This document shows positions 6,374 to 63,990 of a stretch of 64,000 bases of DNA, one piece after another. Position numbers and translations under genes: made by a program. Positions within the stretch are counted from its first letter, which is position 1, and each line of letters begins with the position of its first letter. The stretch lies in assembly GCF_044324875.1 (NCBI RefSeq), contig NZ_CP172185.1, one strand, 5' to 3'. Source of the stretch: Escherichia coli. GTDB lineage: Bacteria; Pseudomonadota; Gammaproteobacteria; Enterobacterales; Enterobacteriaceae. Under the pieces are notes generated by a model. The model made no database searches. It saw nothing but the letters and a program-made list of their open reading frames with translations, and had not been told where the DNA came from.

Positions 6374-8078
6374 AAAACTGGCTGCGATTAATTCGCTATC
6401 ACAGTTGCGCGGAATGTTAGAAATGTTGGGAGATTTGGGGATAGACATCAGTGACGATTTACAAAAAATTACTTATGCAATTAATTCCATCGAATCTGAT
6501 GTTCTGCGTATTGCTTTGTTGGGGGCGTTTTCTGATGGCAAAACCAGCGTTATCGCTGCATGGATGGGTAAGATAATGGATGATATGAATATTTCCATGG
6601 ATGAGTCCTCTGATCGGTTGAGTATTTACAAACCGGAAGGTCTGCCAGACCAGTGTGAAATTGTTGATACACCCGGGCTGTTTGGTGATAAAGAGCGTGA
6701 GGTGGACGGGAAACAGGTGATGTATGAAGACCTGACCAAACGCTATATATCTGAAGCTCATCTGATTTTATACGTGGTTGATGCCACTAACCCGCTAAAG
6801 GAGAGCCACAACGACATCGTAAAATGGGTATTGCGCGATTTGAATAAACTCTCTTCAACCATTTTTGTTATCAATAAAATGGATGAAGTGACTGATCTGA
6901 CAGAGCAGGCGCTGTTTGACGAGCAGGCAGCAATTAAAAAGGCGAATCTTAAAGGTAAATTGCAGCGTGCAGCTGCTCTTACCGCTCAGGAGTGTGATCA
7001 GCTAAATATCGTCTGCATTGCTTCAAACCCAAACGGTCGTGGCTTAACGTACTGGTTTGATAAACCAGAACATTATGAAAGTCGTTCGCGCATTAACGAT
7101 CTTAAAAATGCTGCCACCGACATACTGAAAACTAATGTGCCAGAGGTATTGTTAGCGAAAACAGGTATGGACGTGGTGAAAGATATTGTCATTCAGCGTG
7201 CCACCCAGGCAAGCAGACAGTTCGATGAACTGAATCTGTTTGTTGAGAAGAATGACGAGGACATGTGTCGTTTTCAGAACGACATTAAGCAAAGTCGCAT
7301 TGAGGTTAAACGGCTGGCCGGAGAGTTATTTGAAGAGCTGAACCTGATGGAAAAAAAGCTGATGAGTCAACTGCGTTCACTCGATCTGGACGATATCCGC
7401 CCGTTTATGGACGATGAGCTGGGATATACAGAAGATGGGGTTGGCTTTAAGCTTCATCTGCGCATTGAGCAGTCAGTTCATCGTTTTTTCGAACAGTCGA
7501 AAGCGGTCTCGCAACGCTTATCTGATGATATCACTTGTCAGTTGAGCTCCAGCGAGAGCTTTCTAAGTGGCTTAGGCGAAGGCGCATTTCGTTCTTTAGG
7601 CGGGACCTTTAAGGGAGTGTCGAAAATTAGTCCGGCGACGCTCAAAACGACTATTTTGACCGCACGCGATACGATTGGCAAACTAACGGGATATACCTAT
7701 AAATTTAAACCCTGGGAGGCCACGAAACTGGCCGGAAGCATTTCCAAATGGGCTGGTCCTGTGGGTGCAGTGTTTACGATTGGTTCTGATCTATGGGATG
7801 CCTATAAAGCACACGAGCGGGAGCAGGAGCTGAAAAAAGTAAAAGAATCGCTGGCGAAAATCATTAAAGAGCAGTTTGAATATATCTATGACGTACTGAG
7901 TTCTGATGAGAAAATATTCGCCTTTTTTGCACCGCAGATCCAAAAAATGGAGCAGGTTGTTACTGAGCTGGCAGAGAAAAGCCAGGCTATTCGCGACAAC
8001 CGGCAGAAACTGAGCATTATTCAGACGCAGCTTGCACAACTAATGGTTCCAGCCACAGAAAACCATACTGTCAGATAG
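6345..8078 (+). CDS. leoA: LeoA-like bacterial dynamin-like GTPase
   Basis: 577 aa. G1 GAFSDGKTS, G3 DTPGLFG, G4 INKMD. The length matches the LeoA I remember from ETEC H10407. Confidence 0.8.
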   Translation: MEQFKQFSIEKLAAINSLSQLRGMLEMLGDLGIDISDDLQKITYAINSIESDVLRIALLGAFSDGKTSVIAAWMGKIMDDMNISMDESSDRLSIYKPEGLPDQCEIVDTPGLFGDKEREVDGKQVMYEDLTKRYISEAHLILYVVDATNPLKESHNDIVKWVLRDLNKLSSTIFVINKMDEVTDLTEQALFDEQAAIKKANLKGKLQRAAALTAQECDQLNIVCIASNPNGRGLTYWFDKPEHYESRSRINDLKNAATDILKTNVPEVLLAKTGMDVVKDIVIQRATQASRQFDELNLFVEKNDEDMCRFQNDIKQSRIEVKRLAGELFEELNLMEKKLMSQLRSLDLDDIRPFMDDELGYTEDGVGFKLHLRIEQSVHRFFEQSKAVSQRLSDDITCQLSSSESFLSGLGEGAFRSLGGTFKGVSKISPATLKTTILTARDTIGKLTGYTYKFKPWEATKLAGSISKWAGPVGAVFTIGSDLWDAYKAHEREQELKKVKESLAKIIKEQFEYIYDVLSSDEKIFAFFAPQIQKMEQVVTELAEKSQAIRDNRQKLSIIQTQLAQLMVPATENHTVR

Positions 8079-23483: not shown

Positions 23484-23807
23484 TCTATGGCGCTACTGGC
23501 ACCATAGTACAAAAAATAAGCGATGGTGCCACTGGCACCATAGTACAAAAAATGAGCGATGGTGCCACTGGCACCACGGTATAAAAAATGAGCGATGGTG
23601 CCACTGGCACCACGGTATAAAAAATGAGCGATGGTGACGCTGGCACCATAGTACAAAAAATAAGCGATGGTGCCACTGGCACCACGGTACAAAAAATAAG
23701 CGATGGTGCCACTGGCACCATAGTACAAAAAATGAGCGATGGTGCCACTGGCACCATAGTACAAAAAATGAGCGATGGTGCCACTGGCACCATAGTATAA
23801 AAACGAA
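23484..23807. repeat. Nine tandem 36-bp iterons, each with the 19-bp palindrome ATGGTGCCAcTGGCACCAT plus an A-tract spacer
   Basis: Units start at 23484 (degenerate), 23520, 23556, 23592, 23628, 23664, 23700, 23736 and 23772. Consensus GCGATGGTGCCACTGGCACCATAGTACAAAAAATGA. Confidence 0.95.
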
Positions 23808-26920: not shown

Positions 26921-27240
26921 CTAACTTGTCGCTCCGGCGACCACCAATGTTCCATAGTGGCCTGTGAGGAACGCCTTCGGGTGGCCCATGTCGCTTCAGC
27001 GACCACCAATGTTCCATGTGGCCTGTGAGGAACGCCTTCGGGTGGCCCACGTCGCTCCGGCGACCACCAATGCTTCATCTGACCTGTGAGGAGCGCCTTC
27101 GGGTGGTCAGTTTTACACCTCCTGAGCCTGAAAGGAGCTGTGCGTACTGAAGGGATATATTCCCGGAAGTACGGGCAAATCTGCACACCTTTGAGAGCAG
27201 ATGTCACTGCGGTTTTCCGTGATGATGAAGGCTTTTTTTA
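26921..27240 (+). ncRNA. Tandem-pseudoknot structured element, STAXI-like, copy 1 (three 61-62-nt units plus a conserved 3' tail)
   Basis: Units GTCGCTCCGGCGACCACCAATGTTCCAT.GTGGCCTGTGAGGAACGCCTTCGGGTGGCCCA repeat 3 times. Hairpin GTCGC/GCGAC plus GTTCC/GGAAC and CCACC/GGTGG pairings. Located between topB and DUF3577/ssb. Confidence 0.55.
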
Positions 27241-55640: not shown

Positions 55641-56813
55641 TTATTTATTTCCTTTTGAACGATTATGCGTAACGCAAAGCATTTCGCAATTATCAGGCTT
55701 ACTTTCACCCCCCTTACTCCATGCGGAAACATGGTCGGCTTCCATTTCTTTCAAAGCCCAGATTTTTGTTTTATTGGCATTATCTGAACTGGCGCAAAGG
55801 GGGCAGTTTGAAATACCTTGTTGCTCCGCTTTATCTGTTTGCCTTTTGTAGGCTTGTTTTTTAATTTTTTCATCAAAAAAGCGAATGTTTAATAAACGTT
55901 TATCAGATTGACCACCTAACACATATTCCCAGATGCCTTTAATGTTTTTTACACTATCATCCTGATATAATTTATTGATTTGCGTGGCTAATTCACCTGG
56001 ATTGTATGGTTTGTCTTTATAGGTTTCGTATAAACGCCCCCATTCCAGTCCGCACATTTCTTTTTTTACCTCGGTAAATGTGGTGTTAACCCAGTCAATC
56101 ACGCTATTGAAATAGGTTTTTAATTCCTTGATATTGTCATCATTACGATGGGCATTCATGTATTCGCTGATATTTCCTTTACTGACCCAGTTTAACGCAC
56201 ATTCTAAAATTTCCTGGCGTTTAACATTACCTTTGATGTAAGCACTCCATTTTTGCACATTTGAATTAGCAGAATTACTGAATTCTGCTTTTGCCAGTGT
56301 AACAAATTTGCCCGAATACACCGCATTCAATAATTCTTGTTCATTTAAAGGGACGCCAGTAATATTAATCGTTTTAAACCATTCTTTAATTTCGCTTTCT
56401 GTACCCTTACATTTGTAAATCAGCAAAGTGGTTTGTTTGATTTTCTCTTGTTGGTCTTGCGGTAAACTATGGAAATAGTATGGCGTGCCTTTATCATCTA
56501 TAATGGCGAATTTTCCGGTAACAAACCGCCCAATACTGGTAATGCGCTGCTGACCATCCAGTACTTCAAATGTATCTTCTGTATCTTTGTCAGGTTGATT
56601 AAAATAAATCAAACCGAGCGGATAACCTTTTAATACTGACTGGATAACTGCCACATCTTTCTTACCGTCTGCATAAATATAATTGCGTTGATATTCGGGC
56701 TGAATGGTAAGCTTTCCTGATAAACCAAACAAGCCTTTTCCCTCCAGTTCATTATAAACAAATCCATCGCACAATTGTTCAACGGTGATTGATGTATCTA
56801 ATTGTGTTTTCAT
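55641..56813 (-). CDS. DUF262 (ParB-like nuclease N-terminus, DGQQR) protein with a C-terminal HNH nuclease
   Basis: [14 protein letters not shown]-terminal CPLC...[11 protein letters not shown]...N...[12 protein letters not shown]. Confidence 0.8.
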
Positions 56814-56828
56814 TTTTCACTTTTCCTT

Positions 56829-57983
56829 TTATTTATTTTGTGGATTGATGTGTTTAATAAGAATGCGTCCATAAGTACGTTTGCCGTTAATAACTGTACA
56901 CCCACCCCTATCTTCAGAATGTTGAGAATAATTTAAAATCTCCAGTATCTCTTCGGGAGTTGATGCTCGTGTATTACCACTTGCTTGCCAAATAATTTCA
57001 AACTGTTCAGGACAATATTTATCCAAAAAGCTAATTGGCACGCCCATAACTCCTGCATAATCGCTAGGAATACCGTTAGTTCTGGGCACTTCAATAGCAT
57101 CATAATTGTCATATGCCTGATAAGCGTTAGGGTCATTGATAATTTGTTTGTTGTATTTTAAATTATCCGCCATAGACATTAGCTGTAAAGATTGATGCCG
57201 TCTGCCGTGTTCAATATTGGTAAACCAACAAGAGTTACCCAAACGAGTATAATCACCTATATATCCTAGACGCTCCGCTTTTTTCTTATCAGCTTCCCTC
57301 ACATCAGCACCTTGTGGTACAGCAAAAACCATATCATTACCATTCCCAGTAGCACCCAACCAAATTTTATTTCCTTTGATAAGTGGAAAAATCTCTTTAT
57401 AAGTAATAGCATTCATATTACCGATAACGGCAAACTGCTTTTTACCTTCCATAATCCATGCCATAAATTCGCGAAACAGCGAAAAAGGCGGATTGGTGAT
57501 AATTATGTCGCTTTCATCGCGTAGAGCTTTGATTTCATCACTACGAAAATCGCCATCACCCTGCAGGTATTGCCATTTAATATCTTTAAAATCAATTACA
57601 CCATCGTGATTACTGTCTTCGGTTAGCGTGTAAATTTTGCCATGTTTCTGGCTTTTATCACTGTCGTATTGTTCACTTTCGCTTTCAAATAATGATGGCT
57701 GATAAGCTGTGTTTAACTGTTTGGATTGATGAGCGTAGCTGGTACTGATGAGCTTCTTTAATCCAAGTCGTTCAAAGTTTTGTGCAAAATAAAGTGTGAA
57801 ATTGCTCCACTCGGGGTCATCACATGGTAAGAGAATGGTTTTGCCACGAAATACGTCTTTATTGAAATCAAGATAGGCATTCATCTCTTTTTCAATATCA
57901 TGGTATTGGGTGTAAAATTCGTCATTTTTGGCTTTTTTTGCAGCAGAAAGATTACTGTTTTTGGCAGAAATATTCTTTGACAT
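56829..57983 (-). CDS. N6-adenine DNA methyltransferase, EcoRI-methylase-like family
   Basis: NDEFYTQ N-terminus, ILLPCDD, catalytic IIITNPPFSLF. GGAGG RBS. Confidence 0.75.
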   Translation of the reverse strand: MSKNISAKNSNLSAAKKAKNDEFYTQYHDIEKEMNAYLDFNKDVFRGKTILLPCDDPEWSNFTLYFAQNFERLGLKKLISTSYAHQSKQLNTAYQPSLFESESEQYDSDKSQKHGKIYTLTEDSNHDGVIDFKDIKWQYLQGDGDFRSDEIKALRDESDIIITNPPFSLFREFMAWIMEGKKQFAVIGNMNAITYKEIFPLIKGNKIWLGATGNGNDMVFAVPQGADVREADKKKAERLGYIGDYTRLGNSCWFTNIEHGRRHQSLQLMSMADNLKYNKQIINDPNAYQAYDNYDAIEVPRTNGIPSDYAGVMGVPISFLDKYCPEQFEIIWQASGNTRASTPEEILEILNYSQHSEDRGGCTVINGKRTYGRILIKHINPQNK

Positions 57984-58033
57984 TTCAAACCTCCAAAACA
58001 GTATTGAAGGTTTGAAAAAACGGGGTTACATTA

Positions 58034-58152
58034 TGCTTGTTGCTTGTTGCTTGTTGCTTGTTGCTTGTTGCTTGTTGCTTGTTGCTTGTTGCTTGTTGCT
58101 TGTTGCTTGTTGCTTGTTGCTTGTTGCTTGTTGCTTGTTGCTTGTTGCTTGT
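58034..58152. repeat. Perfect heptanucleotide microsatellite (TGCTTGT)x17
   Basis: 119 bp = 17 x 7, no interruptions. Lies 51 bp upstream of the methyltransferase ATG and 60 bp downstream of the ccdB-like stop (both genes on the minus strand). Confidence 0.98.
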
Positions 58153-58211
58153 ATTAGCATTGGATTTTCCCTTTTACTTGTCAAGTATTTTCTTTTGGAT
58201 TCTGAAGTTTT

Positions 58212-58538
58212 TCACGTATTCGTAACGATGGCATCAAGTGCAGCGATAATTTCATTTCTGGATGAAGAAATATTACATATAAAATCTTTGCTGTTTATTT
58301 TTTTTGCATCCAGGAACGTGAGCGCCGGGGTGAACACATAGAAATCCGATGTCTCTATTTTAACTAATGGCGTTATCCTTTTCTTTTTAAGCTCAATATC
58401 ATTTTTTGATACCAGAGGCACGACTATCCTTGTGGTTAAATCGTCAAAATAATCATTCTGGAGAATAAGGTAGAACGGCCAGAGTTTATTCGTTCTGACC
58501 GATGGATTGCGGTATACATCAAATTGCTTTGGCATCAC
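58212..58538 (-). CDS. ccdB: CcdB-family toxin
   Basis: FDVYRN...PFYLILQNDYFDDLTTRIVVPL resembles the CcdB N-terminal pattern. The start overlaps the antitoxin stop. Confidence 0.6.
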   Translation of the reverse strand: MMPKQFDVYRNPSVRTNKLWPFYLILQNDYFDDLTTRIVVPLVSKNDIELKKKRITPLVKIETSDFYVFTPALTFLDAKKINSKDFICNISSSRNEIIAALDAIVTNT

Positions 58539-58783
58539 AGACTCCCAAAGAAATCGTCATCCGTCAACATTCCTGCTTTTGCCATAAATTTATTCATAGT
58601 GTGCATATCCTGTTTTTCTTCTTCCCGCTCTACAGTTTTGGCCTCGATAGCCTGTGCCAGAAGGTTATCCAGTGTTGCCGACAGGTTCATGTCCATACTC
58701 CGGGCTTTATCAACCAGTGAGGCCGTCAGGTAAACGTTGGTGCTTCTTTTGTTGCTGTTACGAGTGGTGGCAACTGTATTCAT
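58535..58783 (-). CDS. ccdA: CcdA-family antitoxin
   Basis: AGGAG 9 nt upstream of ATG 58783 (MNTVATTRNSNKRSTNVYLTASLVDKARSMDMNLSATLDNLL...). The longer track ORF to 58879 runs into the ykgM-derived repeat and is rejected. Confidence 0.6.
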   Translation of the reverse strand: MNTVATTRNSNKRSTNVYLTASLVDKARSMDMNLSATLDNLLAQAIEAKTVEREEEKQDMHTMNKFMAKAGMLTDDDFFGSL

Positions 58784-60940: not shown

Positions 60941-61190
60941 TAACTGTCGCTTCGGCGACCACCAATGTTCCATGAGGCCTGTGAGGAACGCCTTCGGGTG
61001 GCCCACGTCGCTCCGGCGACCACCAATGCTCCATCTGACCTGTGAGGAGCGCCTTCGGGTGGTCAGTTTTACACCTCCGTAGCCTGAAAGGAGCTGTGCG
61101 TGCTGATGGGATATGTTCCCGGAAGTACGGGTAAATCTGCACACCTTTGCGAGCAGATGTCACCACGGTTTACGTGATGATGAAGGCATT
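60941..61190 (+). ncRNA. STAXI-like tandem-pseudoknot element, copy 2 (two units plus tail)
   Basis: Near-identical to 26921-27240 minus one unit. Same orientation. Confidence 0.55.
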
Positions 61191-63732: not shown

Positions 63733-63990
63733 GCTAACTTGTCGCTTCGGCGACCACCAATGTTCCATGTGGCCTGTGAGGAACGCCTTCGGGTGGCCCA
63801 CGTCGCTCCGGCGACCACCAATGCTTCATCTGACCTGTGAGGAGCGCCTTCGGGTGGTCAGTTTTACACCTCCTGAGCCTGAAAGGAGCTGTGCGTGCTG
63901 AAGGGATATGTTCCCGGAAGTACGGGCAAATCTGCGCACCTTTGAGAGCAGATGTCACTGCGGTTTTCCGTGATGATGAAGGCTTTTTTA
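63733..63990 (+). ncRNA. STAXI-like tandem-pseudoknot element, copy 3 (two units plus tail)
   Basis: Near-identical to copy 1 and copy 2. Same orientation. Close to the window edge. Confidence 0.55.

Follow-up and report, generated by a model that had tools for sequence, protein, structure and literature searches.

A perfect heptamer tract upstream of a Type II restriction-modification (R-M) operon in Escherichia coli is probably a contingency locus that, judging from the sequence, would be read as part of a leader open reading frame (ORF) and would gate translation of the R-M genes by frame-dependent coupling. The tract was found in a 64,000-nucleotide stretch of contig NZ_CP172185.1, here called the window, and all coordinates refer to this window. 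On the minus strand, positions 58034..58152 read as (ACAAGCA)17, and TRF returned a period of 7 with 17.0 copies, 100% matches, 0 indels and a score of 238. An earlier note on this DNA had described a perfect (TGCTTGT)x17 repeat, and both TRF and direct reading of the sequence bear this out. A two-unit probe gave 16 overlapping matches, all at this single site, versus 0.05 expected from shuffles. The geometry given in the same note also stands, since the methyltransferase ATG (57983) lies 50 nt past the tract, the ccdB stop (58212-58214) lies 59 nt before it, and the genes are all on the minus strand. By its location the tract is placed where control of the R-M genes is possible, as had been suggested.

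The gene predicted to be switched (56829..57983, minus strand) encodes an EcoRI-family N6-adenine DNA methyltransferase of Type II (Pfam PF13651, E=1.6e-131; PADLOC MTase_II, 7e-96). It is followed 15 nt downstream, across an unstructured junction carrying an AAGGA Shine-Dalgarno (SD) sequence, by a gene for a DUF262 (GmrSD_N) and HNH nuclease (55641..56813, minus strand; Pfam; PADLOC REase_II, full length, 3e-86), the putative cognate Type II restriction enzyme. An identical methyltransferase is encoded in more than 1,300 public data blocks. The methyltransferase is a stand-alone enzyme of a Type II family, as expected for a Type II R-M system, and the adjacent, separate restriction endonuclease is recognized by homology, with the REase_II model covered end to end. 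Pfam and PADLOC uphold the identities assigned before (ccdB-like, methyltransferase and nuclease). A sequence search of the PDB retrieved no solved or characterised homologue of the methyltransferase or the nuclease, and NCBIfam held no model matching either of them. Upstream of the tract lie ccdB (58212-58535) and ccdA (58535-58783), both on the minus strand and identified by Pfam and by the RefSeq annotation of an identical locus. The proposed conjugative-element context is confirmed by the RefSeq annotation of identical loci, which includes TIGR03756/TIGR03757 ICE proteins, TraG and an integrase, and the R-M genes form low-GC cargo of this chromosomal ICE (36-37% GC versus 57-60% for the ICE backbone). 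A search of 72,556 plasmids gave matches to ccdAB only, and the R-M genes and the repeat were absent from them. The idea that ccdAB forms a module with the R-M genes did not hold up, as ccdAB is absent from locus L090 (CP126293.1) and from all homologous loci outside E. coli, and for the same reason we discarded it as an integral part of the switch. A promoter-like TTGATT-17-CATAAT is present at 58846-58818, and a scan for minus-strand terminator-like sites between ccdB and the methyltransferase gene found none. Because there is no such terminator in between, ccdAB is a likely source of read-through transcripts carrying the leader.

Tract length differs between nearly identical genomes. With n denoting the number of units, the window (n = 17) and the loci L001 (n = 11), L002 (n = 14) and L087 (n = 7) show 0 substitutions across 3,100 nt of flank, L089 (n = 11) shows 1 substitution in the same 3,100 nt, and more diverged E. 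coli copies have n = 12, 9, 2 and 2. The length of the tract therefore changes far faster than its flank acquires substitutions, and all three reading frames are found among natural alleles. The earlier note had proposed a substrate for slipped-strand mispairing and had called for a comparison of copy number across related isolates; this number proved variable (n = 7-17 at 0-1 flank substitutions), and a tract that is length-polymorphic among near-identical genomes indicates a hypermutable locus. Two hallmarks of simple-sequence repeat (SSR) contingency loci are thus directly visible, namely a long uninterrupted repeat of a short unit and length polymorphism in near-identical genomes, and the third, that a change in length alters gene expression, is an in silico prediction. 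Phase variation of the R-M genes by the heptamer tract is supported by these data. The two alleles with n = 2 are too short for ready slippage; one of them (L005) has intact R-M genes, and in the other (L006) the nuclease gene is split by IS1.

The repeat had been regarded as untranslated, which is not borne out, since it forms the body of a leader ORF that was missed in the earlier note. This ORF has its own SD-like sequence, AAGGGA (58168..58173, minus strand, by sequence reading), located 8 nt upstream of an ATG at 58160-58158. In the present frame it spans 58026..58160 on the minus strand, comprises 44 codons encoding MLIQ(ATSNKQQ)n..ATSIM, and ends at a TAA at 58028-58026. An SD sequence and a start codon of its own, upstream of the regulated gene, are what is found in leader-ORF control. 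Directly after the repeat, the sequence TAATGTAA (58026..58033, minus strand) provides two TAA stops in two frames. The first (58033-58031) closes the frame for n mod 3 = 1, 50 nt before the methyltransferase ATG, and the second (58028-58026) closes the frame for n mod 3 = 2, 45 nt before this ATG. When n mod 3 = 0, the leader frame reads through to a TGA at 57985..57987 (minus strand), 1 nt before the methyltransferase ATG, which is predicted to be a termination-reinitiation site. As 7 is not divisible by 3, every unit gained or lost shifts the leader frame, and leader termination occurs at -50 or -45 in two frames versus -4 in the third, the last one through a hairpin that covers the SD sequence of the methyltransferase gene. 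The in-frame TAA that had been reported 15 codons upstream of the methyltransferase ATG could be located at 58028-58026. It closes the methyltransferase frame, which excludes that the tract extends the enzyme at its N-terminus, and the locus does not have the SSR within the methyltransferase ORF that characterizes the described Type I and Type III phasevarions.

This anti-SD hairpin (57983..58017, minus strand) has a 14-bp stem, with a 5' arm at 58017-58004, a loop at 58003-57997 and a 3' arm at 57996-57983. Its paired bases include GGAGG (57994-57990) and the A that opens the methyltransferase AUG. Folding of 91 nt gave a minimum free energy of -20 kcal/mol (z=-3.33), and a 54-nt segment gave -17 kcal/mol (z=-3.96), with none of 200 shuffles equally stable. 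When the hairpins of nine loci were compared with shuffles, z-scores ranged from -3.3 to -5.0 in six and were weak in three, and the hairpins of the Haemophilus L077/L078 group were no better than shuffles. MAFFT combined with RNAalifold gave no consensus for the hairpin region, in which loop lengths differ, and conservation was judged by per-sequence shuffles and an AUG-anchored pair table. In this table at least 3/4 of the SD core is paired in 9 of the 11 loci, and there are compensatory pair changes between lineages, so that a stable structure over the SD sequence and start codon of the regulated gene comes with covariation support. Neither the intergenic region nor the upstream element of the Bacteroidota relatives matched an RNA family in Rfam.

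These elements suggest how the tract may act. With n a multiple of 3, ribosomes reading the leader would melt the hairpin and terminate beside the AUG, and the methyltransferase would be translated through coupling or reinitiation (ON). With any other n, ribosomes would drop off before the hairpin, the SD sequence would stay buried, and methyltransferase levels would be low (OFF). The untranslated operon would then likely be subject to polarity, lowering the downstream nuclease as well; this co-silencing assumes polarity, and the nuclease gene has its own SD sequence and an unstructured start region. The outcome would be stochastic, heritable and reversible ON/OFF switching of restriction and genome methylation in the ICE host. 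One point against the proposal is the danger of self-restriction when a classical Type II system goes from OFF to ON.

We computed the frame outcome for every E. coli copy and found SD, ATG, stop pair and hairpin intact in all of them. The window, in the -45 stop frame, is predicted to be in an OFF or low, uncoupled state, and 9 of the 11 natural E. coli alleles fall in predicted OFF frames, including both n = 2 alleles. Either enough methyltransferase is made in the OFF state or the system is often silent. The n = 12 leader of L003 has been annotated by PGAP as a 46-aa protein that ends 1 nt before the methyltransferase ATG, and ON-state leaders are present in databases (P0001 and P0002).

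The same layout occurs in other loci. The closest relatives of the methyltransferase are from Moraxella and Haemophilus, and upstream of homologous methyltransferases (60-81% identity) repeats end 55-68 nt before the ATG, compared to 50-51 nt in the E. coli copies. The repeat units are unrelated and measure 4, 5, 7, 8 or 11 nt, none of them a multiple of 3: (AACAGCG)10 in Moraxella and at least eight copies of AACACGC in Alysiella, (AATCA)13 in Mannheimia, (AACGC)13 in Spirabiliibacterium and (AAGC)9 plus two 11-mers in Haemophilus, and (CCTACAAG)5 in a metagenomic locus. An SD sequence and start codon precede the repeat in every homologous locus for which upstream sequence exists. Locus L090 has unrelated upstream DNA, yet an SD sequence and ATG lie directly before its compound tract (AACGC)n(ACAAGCA)12. 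Nearly all homologous loci keep two early stops in two frames, although a variant from S. suis/E. faecalis has a single early stop. In all homologues the third frame ends somewhere from -6 to +8 relative to the methyltransferase ATG, including TAATG- and ATGA-type overlaps. This architecture of two early stops and one near the ATG arises in only 2-7% of shuffles per locus. In M. pluranimalium the tract is degenerate and effectively fixed in length, in the read-through frame. Repeat-less relatives from Bacteroidota mostly have neither leader nor hairpin, indicating that leader, hairpin and repeat travel together.

The design is also present in front of another gene family. The ACAAGCA heptamer and the same arrangement are found upstream of Type III-like mod-res genes in S. 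suis, S. agalactiae and E. faecalis, and E. coli and Streptococcus share both the heptamer and the ACTTGACAAG motif. In the Streptococcus and Enterococcus loci the mod frame is already closed at 18 nt upstream, a TAATG joins stop and start, and hairpin stabilities range from -17 to -23 kcal/mol. A metagenome scan with the 29-nt conserved flank gave no matches, and a scan with the methyltransferase protein gave 80 loci, mostly Bacteroidota-like and without repeats, with one new SSR locus (L101). Mini-ORFs encoding the same peptide repeat in Treponema and Synergistaceae do not adjoin methyltransferase genes, so the heptamer alone is not diagnostic.

The tract might instead lie between a promoter (that of ccdAB or one with the TTGACA box described below) and the methyltransferase gene and tune expression gradually, at the level of transcription or in the 5'-UTR, through distance or helical phase to an upstream element or through mRNA stability and regardless of frame, which we consider unlikely. 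SSRs are known to act as promoter spacers (hif, opc and fim type) and as upstream or UTR rheostats (hmw1A/2A and uspA2 type), which are placed after the start(s) of transcription and before the gene and act on RNA level whatever the frame. The first arrangement is not what we find, as the repeat does not lie between a -35 and a -10 element; with 119 bp the tract is too long for a spacer, and no promoter-like pair flanks it. The second may apply, being compatible with the position of the tract, although the features tied to reading frame speak against it. A perfect TTGACA box is located shortly before the tract (58179..58184, minus strand, by sequence reading); it is part of the conserved ACTTGACAAG motif and is possibly the -35 element of a TTGACA-17-AATGCT promoter. 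This pair is conserved in Moraxella and Spirabiliibacterium. If it is a promoter, transcription would start downstream of the leader ATG and exclude it, leaving read-through from ccdAB as the only source of leader translation. However, AATGCT matches at 3 of the 6 positions, below the threshold of the scan, which lists no site there and no consensus promoter spanning or abutting the tract. The ACTTGACAAG motif also occurs in Moraxella and Streptococcus leaders, and in Streptococcus its TTGACA comes after a TGgTATAAT -10 and so cannot be a -35 element. The frame bias by itself is insufficient against DNA phasing, since 3 units amount to 21 bp, or two helical turns, and the series 17/14/11 and 12/9 keep helical phase, but the allele with n = 7 breaks these multiple-of-3 steps.

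There is a precedent for gradual tuning by 7-bp repeats in hmw1A and hmw2A of H. influenzae, with 13-38 units located ~70-105 bp upstream (Dawid et al. 1999, cited in PMC2651432). Like the tract described here, this is a long heptamer array upstream of, and outside, the controlled ORF. According to this secondary account the effect is transcriptional and graded, and neither a frame logic nor a stop arrangement or coupled stop-start is described there. Gradual tuning leaves unexplained the two-frame stop pair and the stop abutting the methyltransferase ATG, the SD sequence and ATG in front of every tract, including L090 with its unrelated upstream DNA, the anti-SD hairpin, and the lack of 3-, 6- and 9-nt units. 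The mechanisms favoured in the earlier note (promoter spacing, UP-element geometry or transcript stability) are accordingly disfavoured, as stop layout and anti-SD hairpin suggest frame-dependent translation.

It is also rather improbable that the module was functional in a low-GC donor, Moraxellaceae or Pasteurellaceae-like, and drifts in E. coli as a relic that exerts no meaningful control. The low GC content of the cargo compared to the ICE backbone, the nearest methyltransferase relatives in Moraxella and Haemophilus, the predominance of predicted OFF frames among the E. coli alleles, and the occurrence of n = 2 tracts or an IS1-split nuclease gene would fit such a history. Neutral microsatellites, however, usually gather interruptions and then collapse, whereas many E. 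coli genomes retain perfect, uninterrupted tracts of 7-17 units, and every copy has its SD, ATG, stop pair and hairpin intact. Moreover, translation in E. coli follows the same SD and hairpin rules, so that the module should work mechanically in this host. That the polarity is inverse, with leader ribosomes that terminate at the ATG occluding initiation, so that n = 0 (mod 3) would be OFF and the other frames basal, is very improbable: most alleles, including those with n = 2, are in early-stop frames with genes kept intact, as would make sense if these were the expressing frames, but a -17 kcal/mol hairpin over SD and AUG should block independent initiation, SD-sequestering structures and stop-start overlaps (TAATG, ATGA, TGAnATG) are associated with positive coupling, and the effectively fixed tract of M. 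pluranimalium sits in the read-through frame.

Frame-dependent coupling, the mechanism we favour, shares elements with several known systems. In ermC/cat-type attenuation, a short leader ORF precedes a hairpin that buries the SD sequence of the regulated gene, and whether this SD is exposed depends on where the ribosome stands on the leader. In ermC the signal is the stalling of ribosomes by the drug, a physiological state that can be reversed in the same cell, whereas here it would be a heritable change in DNA length that sets the reading frame. Known phase-variable R-M systems are of Type I, III and IIG, carry repeats or inversions inside their own genes, and are found mostly in host-adapted pathogens. 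[quoted passage not shown] Both loci have a strain-variable heptanucleotide SSR, an N6-adenine methyltransferase of an E. coli R-M system, an SD sequence and start codon immediately before the tract, and a 1-in-3 frame logic. In M.Eco131I, however, the tract lies inside the mod ORF of a Type III system and frameshifts the enzyme, whereas the tract described here lies in a separate leader ORF that would act only via coupling and the hairpin, on a Type II system with two separate enzymes. Poly-heptanucleotide phase variation has also been reported for neuO of E. coli K1 (PMC13001214), likewise slipped-strand switching on a horizontally acquired element, but there the tract is in the 5' coding region of the enzyme itself, an O-acetyltransferase and not an R-M protein. 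With heptanucleotide phase variation documented in neuO (PMC13001214) and the STEC Type III mod gene (PMC5909438), the statement that such an arrangement would be unusual for E. coli was too strong as far as the repeat is concerned, although the Type II system and the leader position of the repeat are indeed unusual.

A genome survey of H. influenzae biogroup aegyptius F3031 (Power et al. 2009, PMC2651432) listed a (CAAG)32 tract, 58 bp before an EcoRI-like adenine methylase. This tract shares the methyltransferase family and the location of the SSR with respect to the start codon, and by analogy very likely belongs to the same architecture. The survey proposed no leader ORF, stops, hairpin or mechanism. 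In tlpB of H. pylori, a G-repeat in the mRNA leader is targeted by the sRNA RepG (PMC8295292). This is also a variable SSR in an mRNA leader with a post-transcriptional effect on downstream genes, but it is a homopolymer that serves as an sRNA target site and acts in a graded manner, without a translated leader or choice of frame.

Searches of open-access papers and preprints for phase variation through a leader SSR or through translational coupling, as well as for the repeat-unit strings, gave no description of such a switch. There is about an even chance that SD, start, a repeat with a non-3n unit, a two-frame stop pair, an anti-SD hairpin and a stop at the next start together make up a portable and so far unrecognised cassette. 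If so, any downstream gene would become 1-in-3 phase-variable without repeats in its coding sequence, and the cassette would serve Type II R-M systems on ICEs of Enterobacteriaceae and in Moraxellaceae, Neisseriaceae and Pasteurellaceae, as well as Type III-like systems carried by mobile elements of Firmicutes. It would also follow that SSR surveys restricted to tracts within the methyltransferase ORF have overlooked a class of phase-variable methyltransferases, including Type II and E. coli ones. The layout gives a simple sequence signature to locate further such switches. The locus would add a classical two-gene Type II R-M system to those under SSR control, and an example on a conjugative element in E. 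coli. A switch in a leader ORF would leave the enzyme sequence untouched and be portable between gene families. For the host, stochastic ON/OFF switching of restriction would modulate phage defence as well as the readiness to accept incoming DNA, and epigenetic effects could arise if adenine methylation is turned ON and OFF.

The repeat at 58034-58152 consists of 17 uninterrupted copies of TGCTTGT, or (ACAAGCA)17 on the coding strand (TRF score 238, 100% matches, in agreement with direct sequence read-out). The perfect heptamer array described in the earlier note was thus borne out, and on re-reading its distances to the methyltransferase and ccdB genes were also correct, as was the in-frame TAA placed 15 codons ahead of the methyltransferase ATG. 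A two-unit probe gave 16 overlapping matches in the 64-kb window, all at the tract, compared to a shuffle expectation of 0.05, and TRF detected no comparable second array in the window. All flanking genes are on the minus strand: ccdA (58535-58783) and ccdB (58212-58535), identified by Pfam and by RefSeq annotation of identical loci, an EcoRI-family adenine methyltransferase (56829-57983; PF13651, E=1.6e-131), and a nuclease with DUF262/GmrSD_N and HNH domains (55641-56813; Pfam). In PADLOC, the methyltransferase scored as Type II (7e-96) and the nuclease as a full-length restriction enzyme of Type II (3e-86). The genes are carried by an integrative conjugative element in the chromosome; RefSeq annotation of identical loci places TIGR03756/TIGR03757 proteins, TraG and an integrase close by. 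The GC content of the restriction-modification (R-M) cargo is 36-37% versus 57-60% for the transfer genes. Elsewhere in the window, a ~61-nt element, GTCGCTCCGGCGACCACCAATG...GGGTGGCCCA, forms short tandem arrays at 26927-27106, 60946-61062 and 63741-63857, and 23487-23803 contains 8.8 copies of a 36-bp unit.

Tract counts were taken from the six complete E. coli chromosomes in which the cassette is present, and amounted to 11, 14, 12, 9, 2 and 2 units (L001-L006), all perfect; further contigs with an identical methyltransferase carried 7, 11, 11 and 12 units. The cassette is common, since its exact methyltransferase protein occurs in 1,374 data blocks. Over 3,100 nt of flank, there were no substitutions among the window, L001, L002 and the identical-methyltransferase contig L087, and one in the similar contig L089, and despite this near-identity the unit numbers were 17, 11, 14, 7 and 11, respectively. 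Because the lengths differ and the flanks hardly do, the rate of change of the tract exceeds that of the DNA around it by orders of magnitude. The comparison of copy number in related isolates, proposed in the earlier note, thus turned out positive (7-17 units between virtually identical flanks), and we regard the tract, with very little doubt, as a hypermutable contingency locus. Near the switch, an A/T run located ahead of the TTGACA box (58190-58200 in the window) also varies, its lengths in L005 and L006 being 1 nt apart. In L006 (E. coli 2015C-3121; 6458-7211) an IS1A insertion splits the nuclease gene, leaving the methyltransferase intact next to a tract of 2 units.

The repeat had been regarded as untranslated DNA, which overlooked a leader ORF with its own Shine-Dalgarno (SD) sequence and ATG: an ORF through the whole repeat opens at ATG 58160, with AAGGGA 8 nt ahead. 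The coding strand reads, from the ccdB-TGA onwards, ...ACTTGACAAGTAAAAGGGAAAATCCA-ATG-CTAAT-(ACAAGCA)17-TAATGTAACCCCG-TTTTTTCAAACCTTCAA-TACTGTT-TTGGAGGTTTGAA-ATG, the last codon being the methyltransferase start. As 7 is not a multiple of 3, the frame in which a ribosome exits the repeat is set by the unit number n modulo 3. The computed stops are frame-dependent: with remainder 1, the leader ends at a TAA adjoining the repeat (-50 relative to the methyltransferase ATG); with remainder 2, which is the state of the window (n=17), at a TAA at -45; and with remainder 0, another 15 codons are read up to a TGA that abuts the methyltransferase start, ending 1 nt before its ATG. Such read-through leaders exist as protein database entries (P0001, P0002), and in strain 2013C-3033 (n=12) PGAP independently annotates one of 46 aa ending 1 nt before the methyltransferase start. 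The 35 nt that end with the A of the methyltransferase AUG are predicted to fold into a 14-bp hairpin that pairs GGAGG and this A. This anti-SD hairpin is stable, with -17 kcal/mol in a 54-nt window (z = -3.96, no shuffle being equally stable) and an MFE of -20 kcal/mol in a 91-nt context (z = -3.33). Since the two early stops are located 8-13 nt upstream of the stem, the SD should stay buried when ribosomes end at either of them. Ahead of the hairpin, a T-run (58012-58017 in the window) measures 6, 8 or 7 nt between strains (L003, L004, L005 and L006 versus the window), and the 7-nt form in L005 and L006 abolishes the arrangement with TGA at -4.

The same layout recurs among methyltransferase relatives (60-81% identity, one genome per species). 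In a subset from host-adapted Proteobacteria, a repeat ends 55-68 nt before the start codon, the distance in the E. coli copies being 50-51 nt. The units are unrelated between genera: (AACAGCG)10 in Moraxella sp., at least 8 copies of AACACGC in Alysiella crassa, where the tract begins at the contig end, (AATCA)13 in Mannheimia haemolytica, (AACGC)13 in Spirabiliibacterium falconis, (AAGC)9 in Haemophilus sp., two different 11-mers (x11 and x6) in H. paraphrohaemolyticus, a TTCGG tract at the contig end in [H.] felis, a degenerate CAGCA tract in M. pluranimalium, and (CCTACAAG)5 in a metagenomic contig. Unit lengths are 4, 5, 7, 8 and 11, none divisible by 3, and an SD and ATG directly precede the tract in every locus with upstream sequence. 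Past the tract, two frames end at -42 to -57, and exactly one per locus reaches -6 to +8 of the methyltransferase ATG, TAATG- and ATGA-type overlaps included. This stop architecture arises in 2-7% of shuffled spacers per locus and has been retained despite extensive sequence turnover. Each locus has a predicted hairpin over its own SD, with z = -3.3 to -5.0 in six of nine tested by shuffling and weak values in the Haemophilus L077/L078 group, L071 and L007, and the stem is conserved through compensatory changes between lineages, e.g. U-A, G-C, A-U and C-G at the same AUG-anchored positions. Repeat-less Bacteroidota relatives mostly lack leader and hairpin, indicating that leader, stop pair and hairpin form one module. 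Several Bacteroidota homologs (L025, L026, L046, L053, L072, and also L009 and L081) share a conserved, structured-looking element of ~200 nt, ~250 nt upstream of the methyltransferase start, in which blocks such as ctattattc..aaaagc..aaact..ggggttc..cacctttct recur, with no Rfam 15 match at gathering thresholds.

In locus L090, the upstream DNA is entirely different and lacks ccdAB and TTGACA; GAGG and ATG directly precede a compound (AACGC)n(ACAAGCA)12 tract, an arrangement which suggests that leader modules can recombine. The tract (1286-1450) has (AACGC)~15 fused straight to (ACAAGCA)12, with one N in the assembly, and precedes a methyltransferase identical to that of the window.

A leader-peptide search retrieved ATSNKQQ-repeat mini-ORFs from Streptococcus suis, S. 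agalactiae, S. ruminantium and Enterococcus faecalis. In the loci inspected, from S. suis, S. agalactiae and E. faecalis (L091 3001-3165; L092 337-501; L096 2501-2665; L097 2501-2662), a TTG-initiated leader spanning (AGCAACA)11-12, the same heptamer as in E. coli, is preceded by a TGgTATAAT promoter and by AAGGAG as a strong SD. One or two frames meet an early stop, and another forms a TAATG overlap with, or terminates a few nt into, a Type III-like mod gene (N6_N4_Mtase); a ResIII-family gene comes after mod on these mobile elements. The mod frame is closed 18 nt upstream of the mod ATG, and the mod SD is predicted to be buried in a hairpin of -17 to -23 kcal/mol. By its sequence layout, the leader-repeat design reaches beyond the EcoRI-like methyltransferase family. 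The heptamer alone is not diagnostic, since Treponema and Synergistaceae mini-ORFs with the same repeat are not adjacent to methyltransferases. In Brachyspira hyodysenteriae (L093-L095, 3001-3213), a 70-aa mini-ORF contains (ACAAGCA)15 and shares 11 nt with a 941-aa gene at the GTG start of the latter, for which no Pfam match is on record. The hairpin is weak, and the mini-ORF may represent either a further switch of the leader type or simply a frameshifted N-terminus.

In E. coli, the 10-mer ACTTGACAAG (58178-58187, minus strand) lies shortly before the leader SD; Moraxella has ACTTGACAA, and both S. suis and S. agalactiae have ACTTGACAAGGAG (L008 ~2843-2852; L091 ~2960-2972; L097). In Streptococcus the ACTTGACAAG-type motif sits downstream of the -10 box and therefore cannot be a -35 there. 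The motif may reflect common ancestry of the leader module across phyla, or it may have another role. The conserved TTGACA-17-AATGCT could place a transcription start downstream of the leader ATG. A sequence scan revealed no terminator-like site between ccdB and the leader and a consensus-type promoter ahead of ccdA, thus read-through transcripts should carry the leader.

SD-sequestering structures and termination-reinitiation at adjacent stop and start codons are established, and on this basis we infer an ON/OFF switch. When n is a multiple of 3, ribosomes translating the leader would open the hairpin and feed the methyltransferase AUG (ON), and in the other two frames termination would occur upstream and the methyltransferase would be translated poorly (OFF or low). 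The window allele (n=17) is predicted to be OFF or low, and L003 (n=12) and L004 (n=9) ON; the read-through frame occurs in 5 of the 18 loci scored, compatible with ~1 in 3. The nuclease gene begins 15 nt downstream of the methyltransferase, with an AAGGA SD and no structure at its start, and its co-silencing would require polarity on the untranslated operon, an assumed step. Tract length may also act through DNA phasing: three-unit steps equal two helical turns, so the allele series alone fits phasing too, but the n=7 allele breaks this series. The n=2 alleles (L005, L006) are in an early-stop frame and too short to slip readily, with intact R-M genes in L005, which suggests that 'OFF' may be leaky or silence tolerated. 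A Type II system that switches from OFF to ON runs the risk of self-restriction. Support for the anatomy and its comparison is strong at the sequence level, and we favor, with some reservation, frame-dependent coupling through the leader ORF as the way the tract works. The idea of a phase-variation switch is supported in substance, whereas promoter spacing, UP-element geometry or transcript stability and read-through, put forward as its mechanisms, are not the best fit.

Phase variation of methyltransferases is on record for Type I and III systems, through in-gene repeats or inversions (PMC12707154; PMC10123105), including a Type III mod with the heptanucleotide CAGCGAC[n] in STEC (PMC5909438). 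Heptanucleotide switching is known for neuO of E. coli K1 (PMC13001214) and for H. influenzae, ahead of hmw1A/2A (PMC2651432). For H. influenzae biogroup aegyptius, the same survey (Power et al. 2009, PMC2651432) lists, uninterpreted, a (CAAG)32 tract 58 bp before an EcoRI-like adenine methylase, almost certainly an instance of the architecture described here. The published S. suis modS switch (PMC6265453) has GAGCA repeats within the ORF, and differs from the Streptococcus leader loci, which are separate and carry (AGCAACA) in a leader; the S. suis tracts in that paper may merit a fresh look given the leader-coupling design. Because we found no description, in open-access papers or preprints, of a simple sequence repeat in a leader ORF acting by translational coupling, the locus would belong to the known phase variation of R-M systems by simple sequence repeats, with a position, mechanism and system type that appear to be new.
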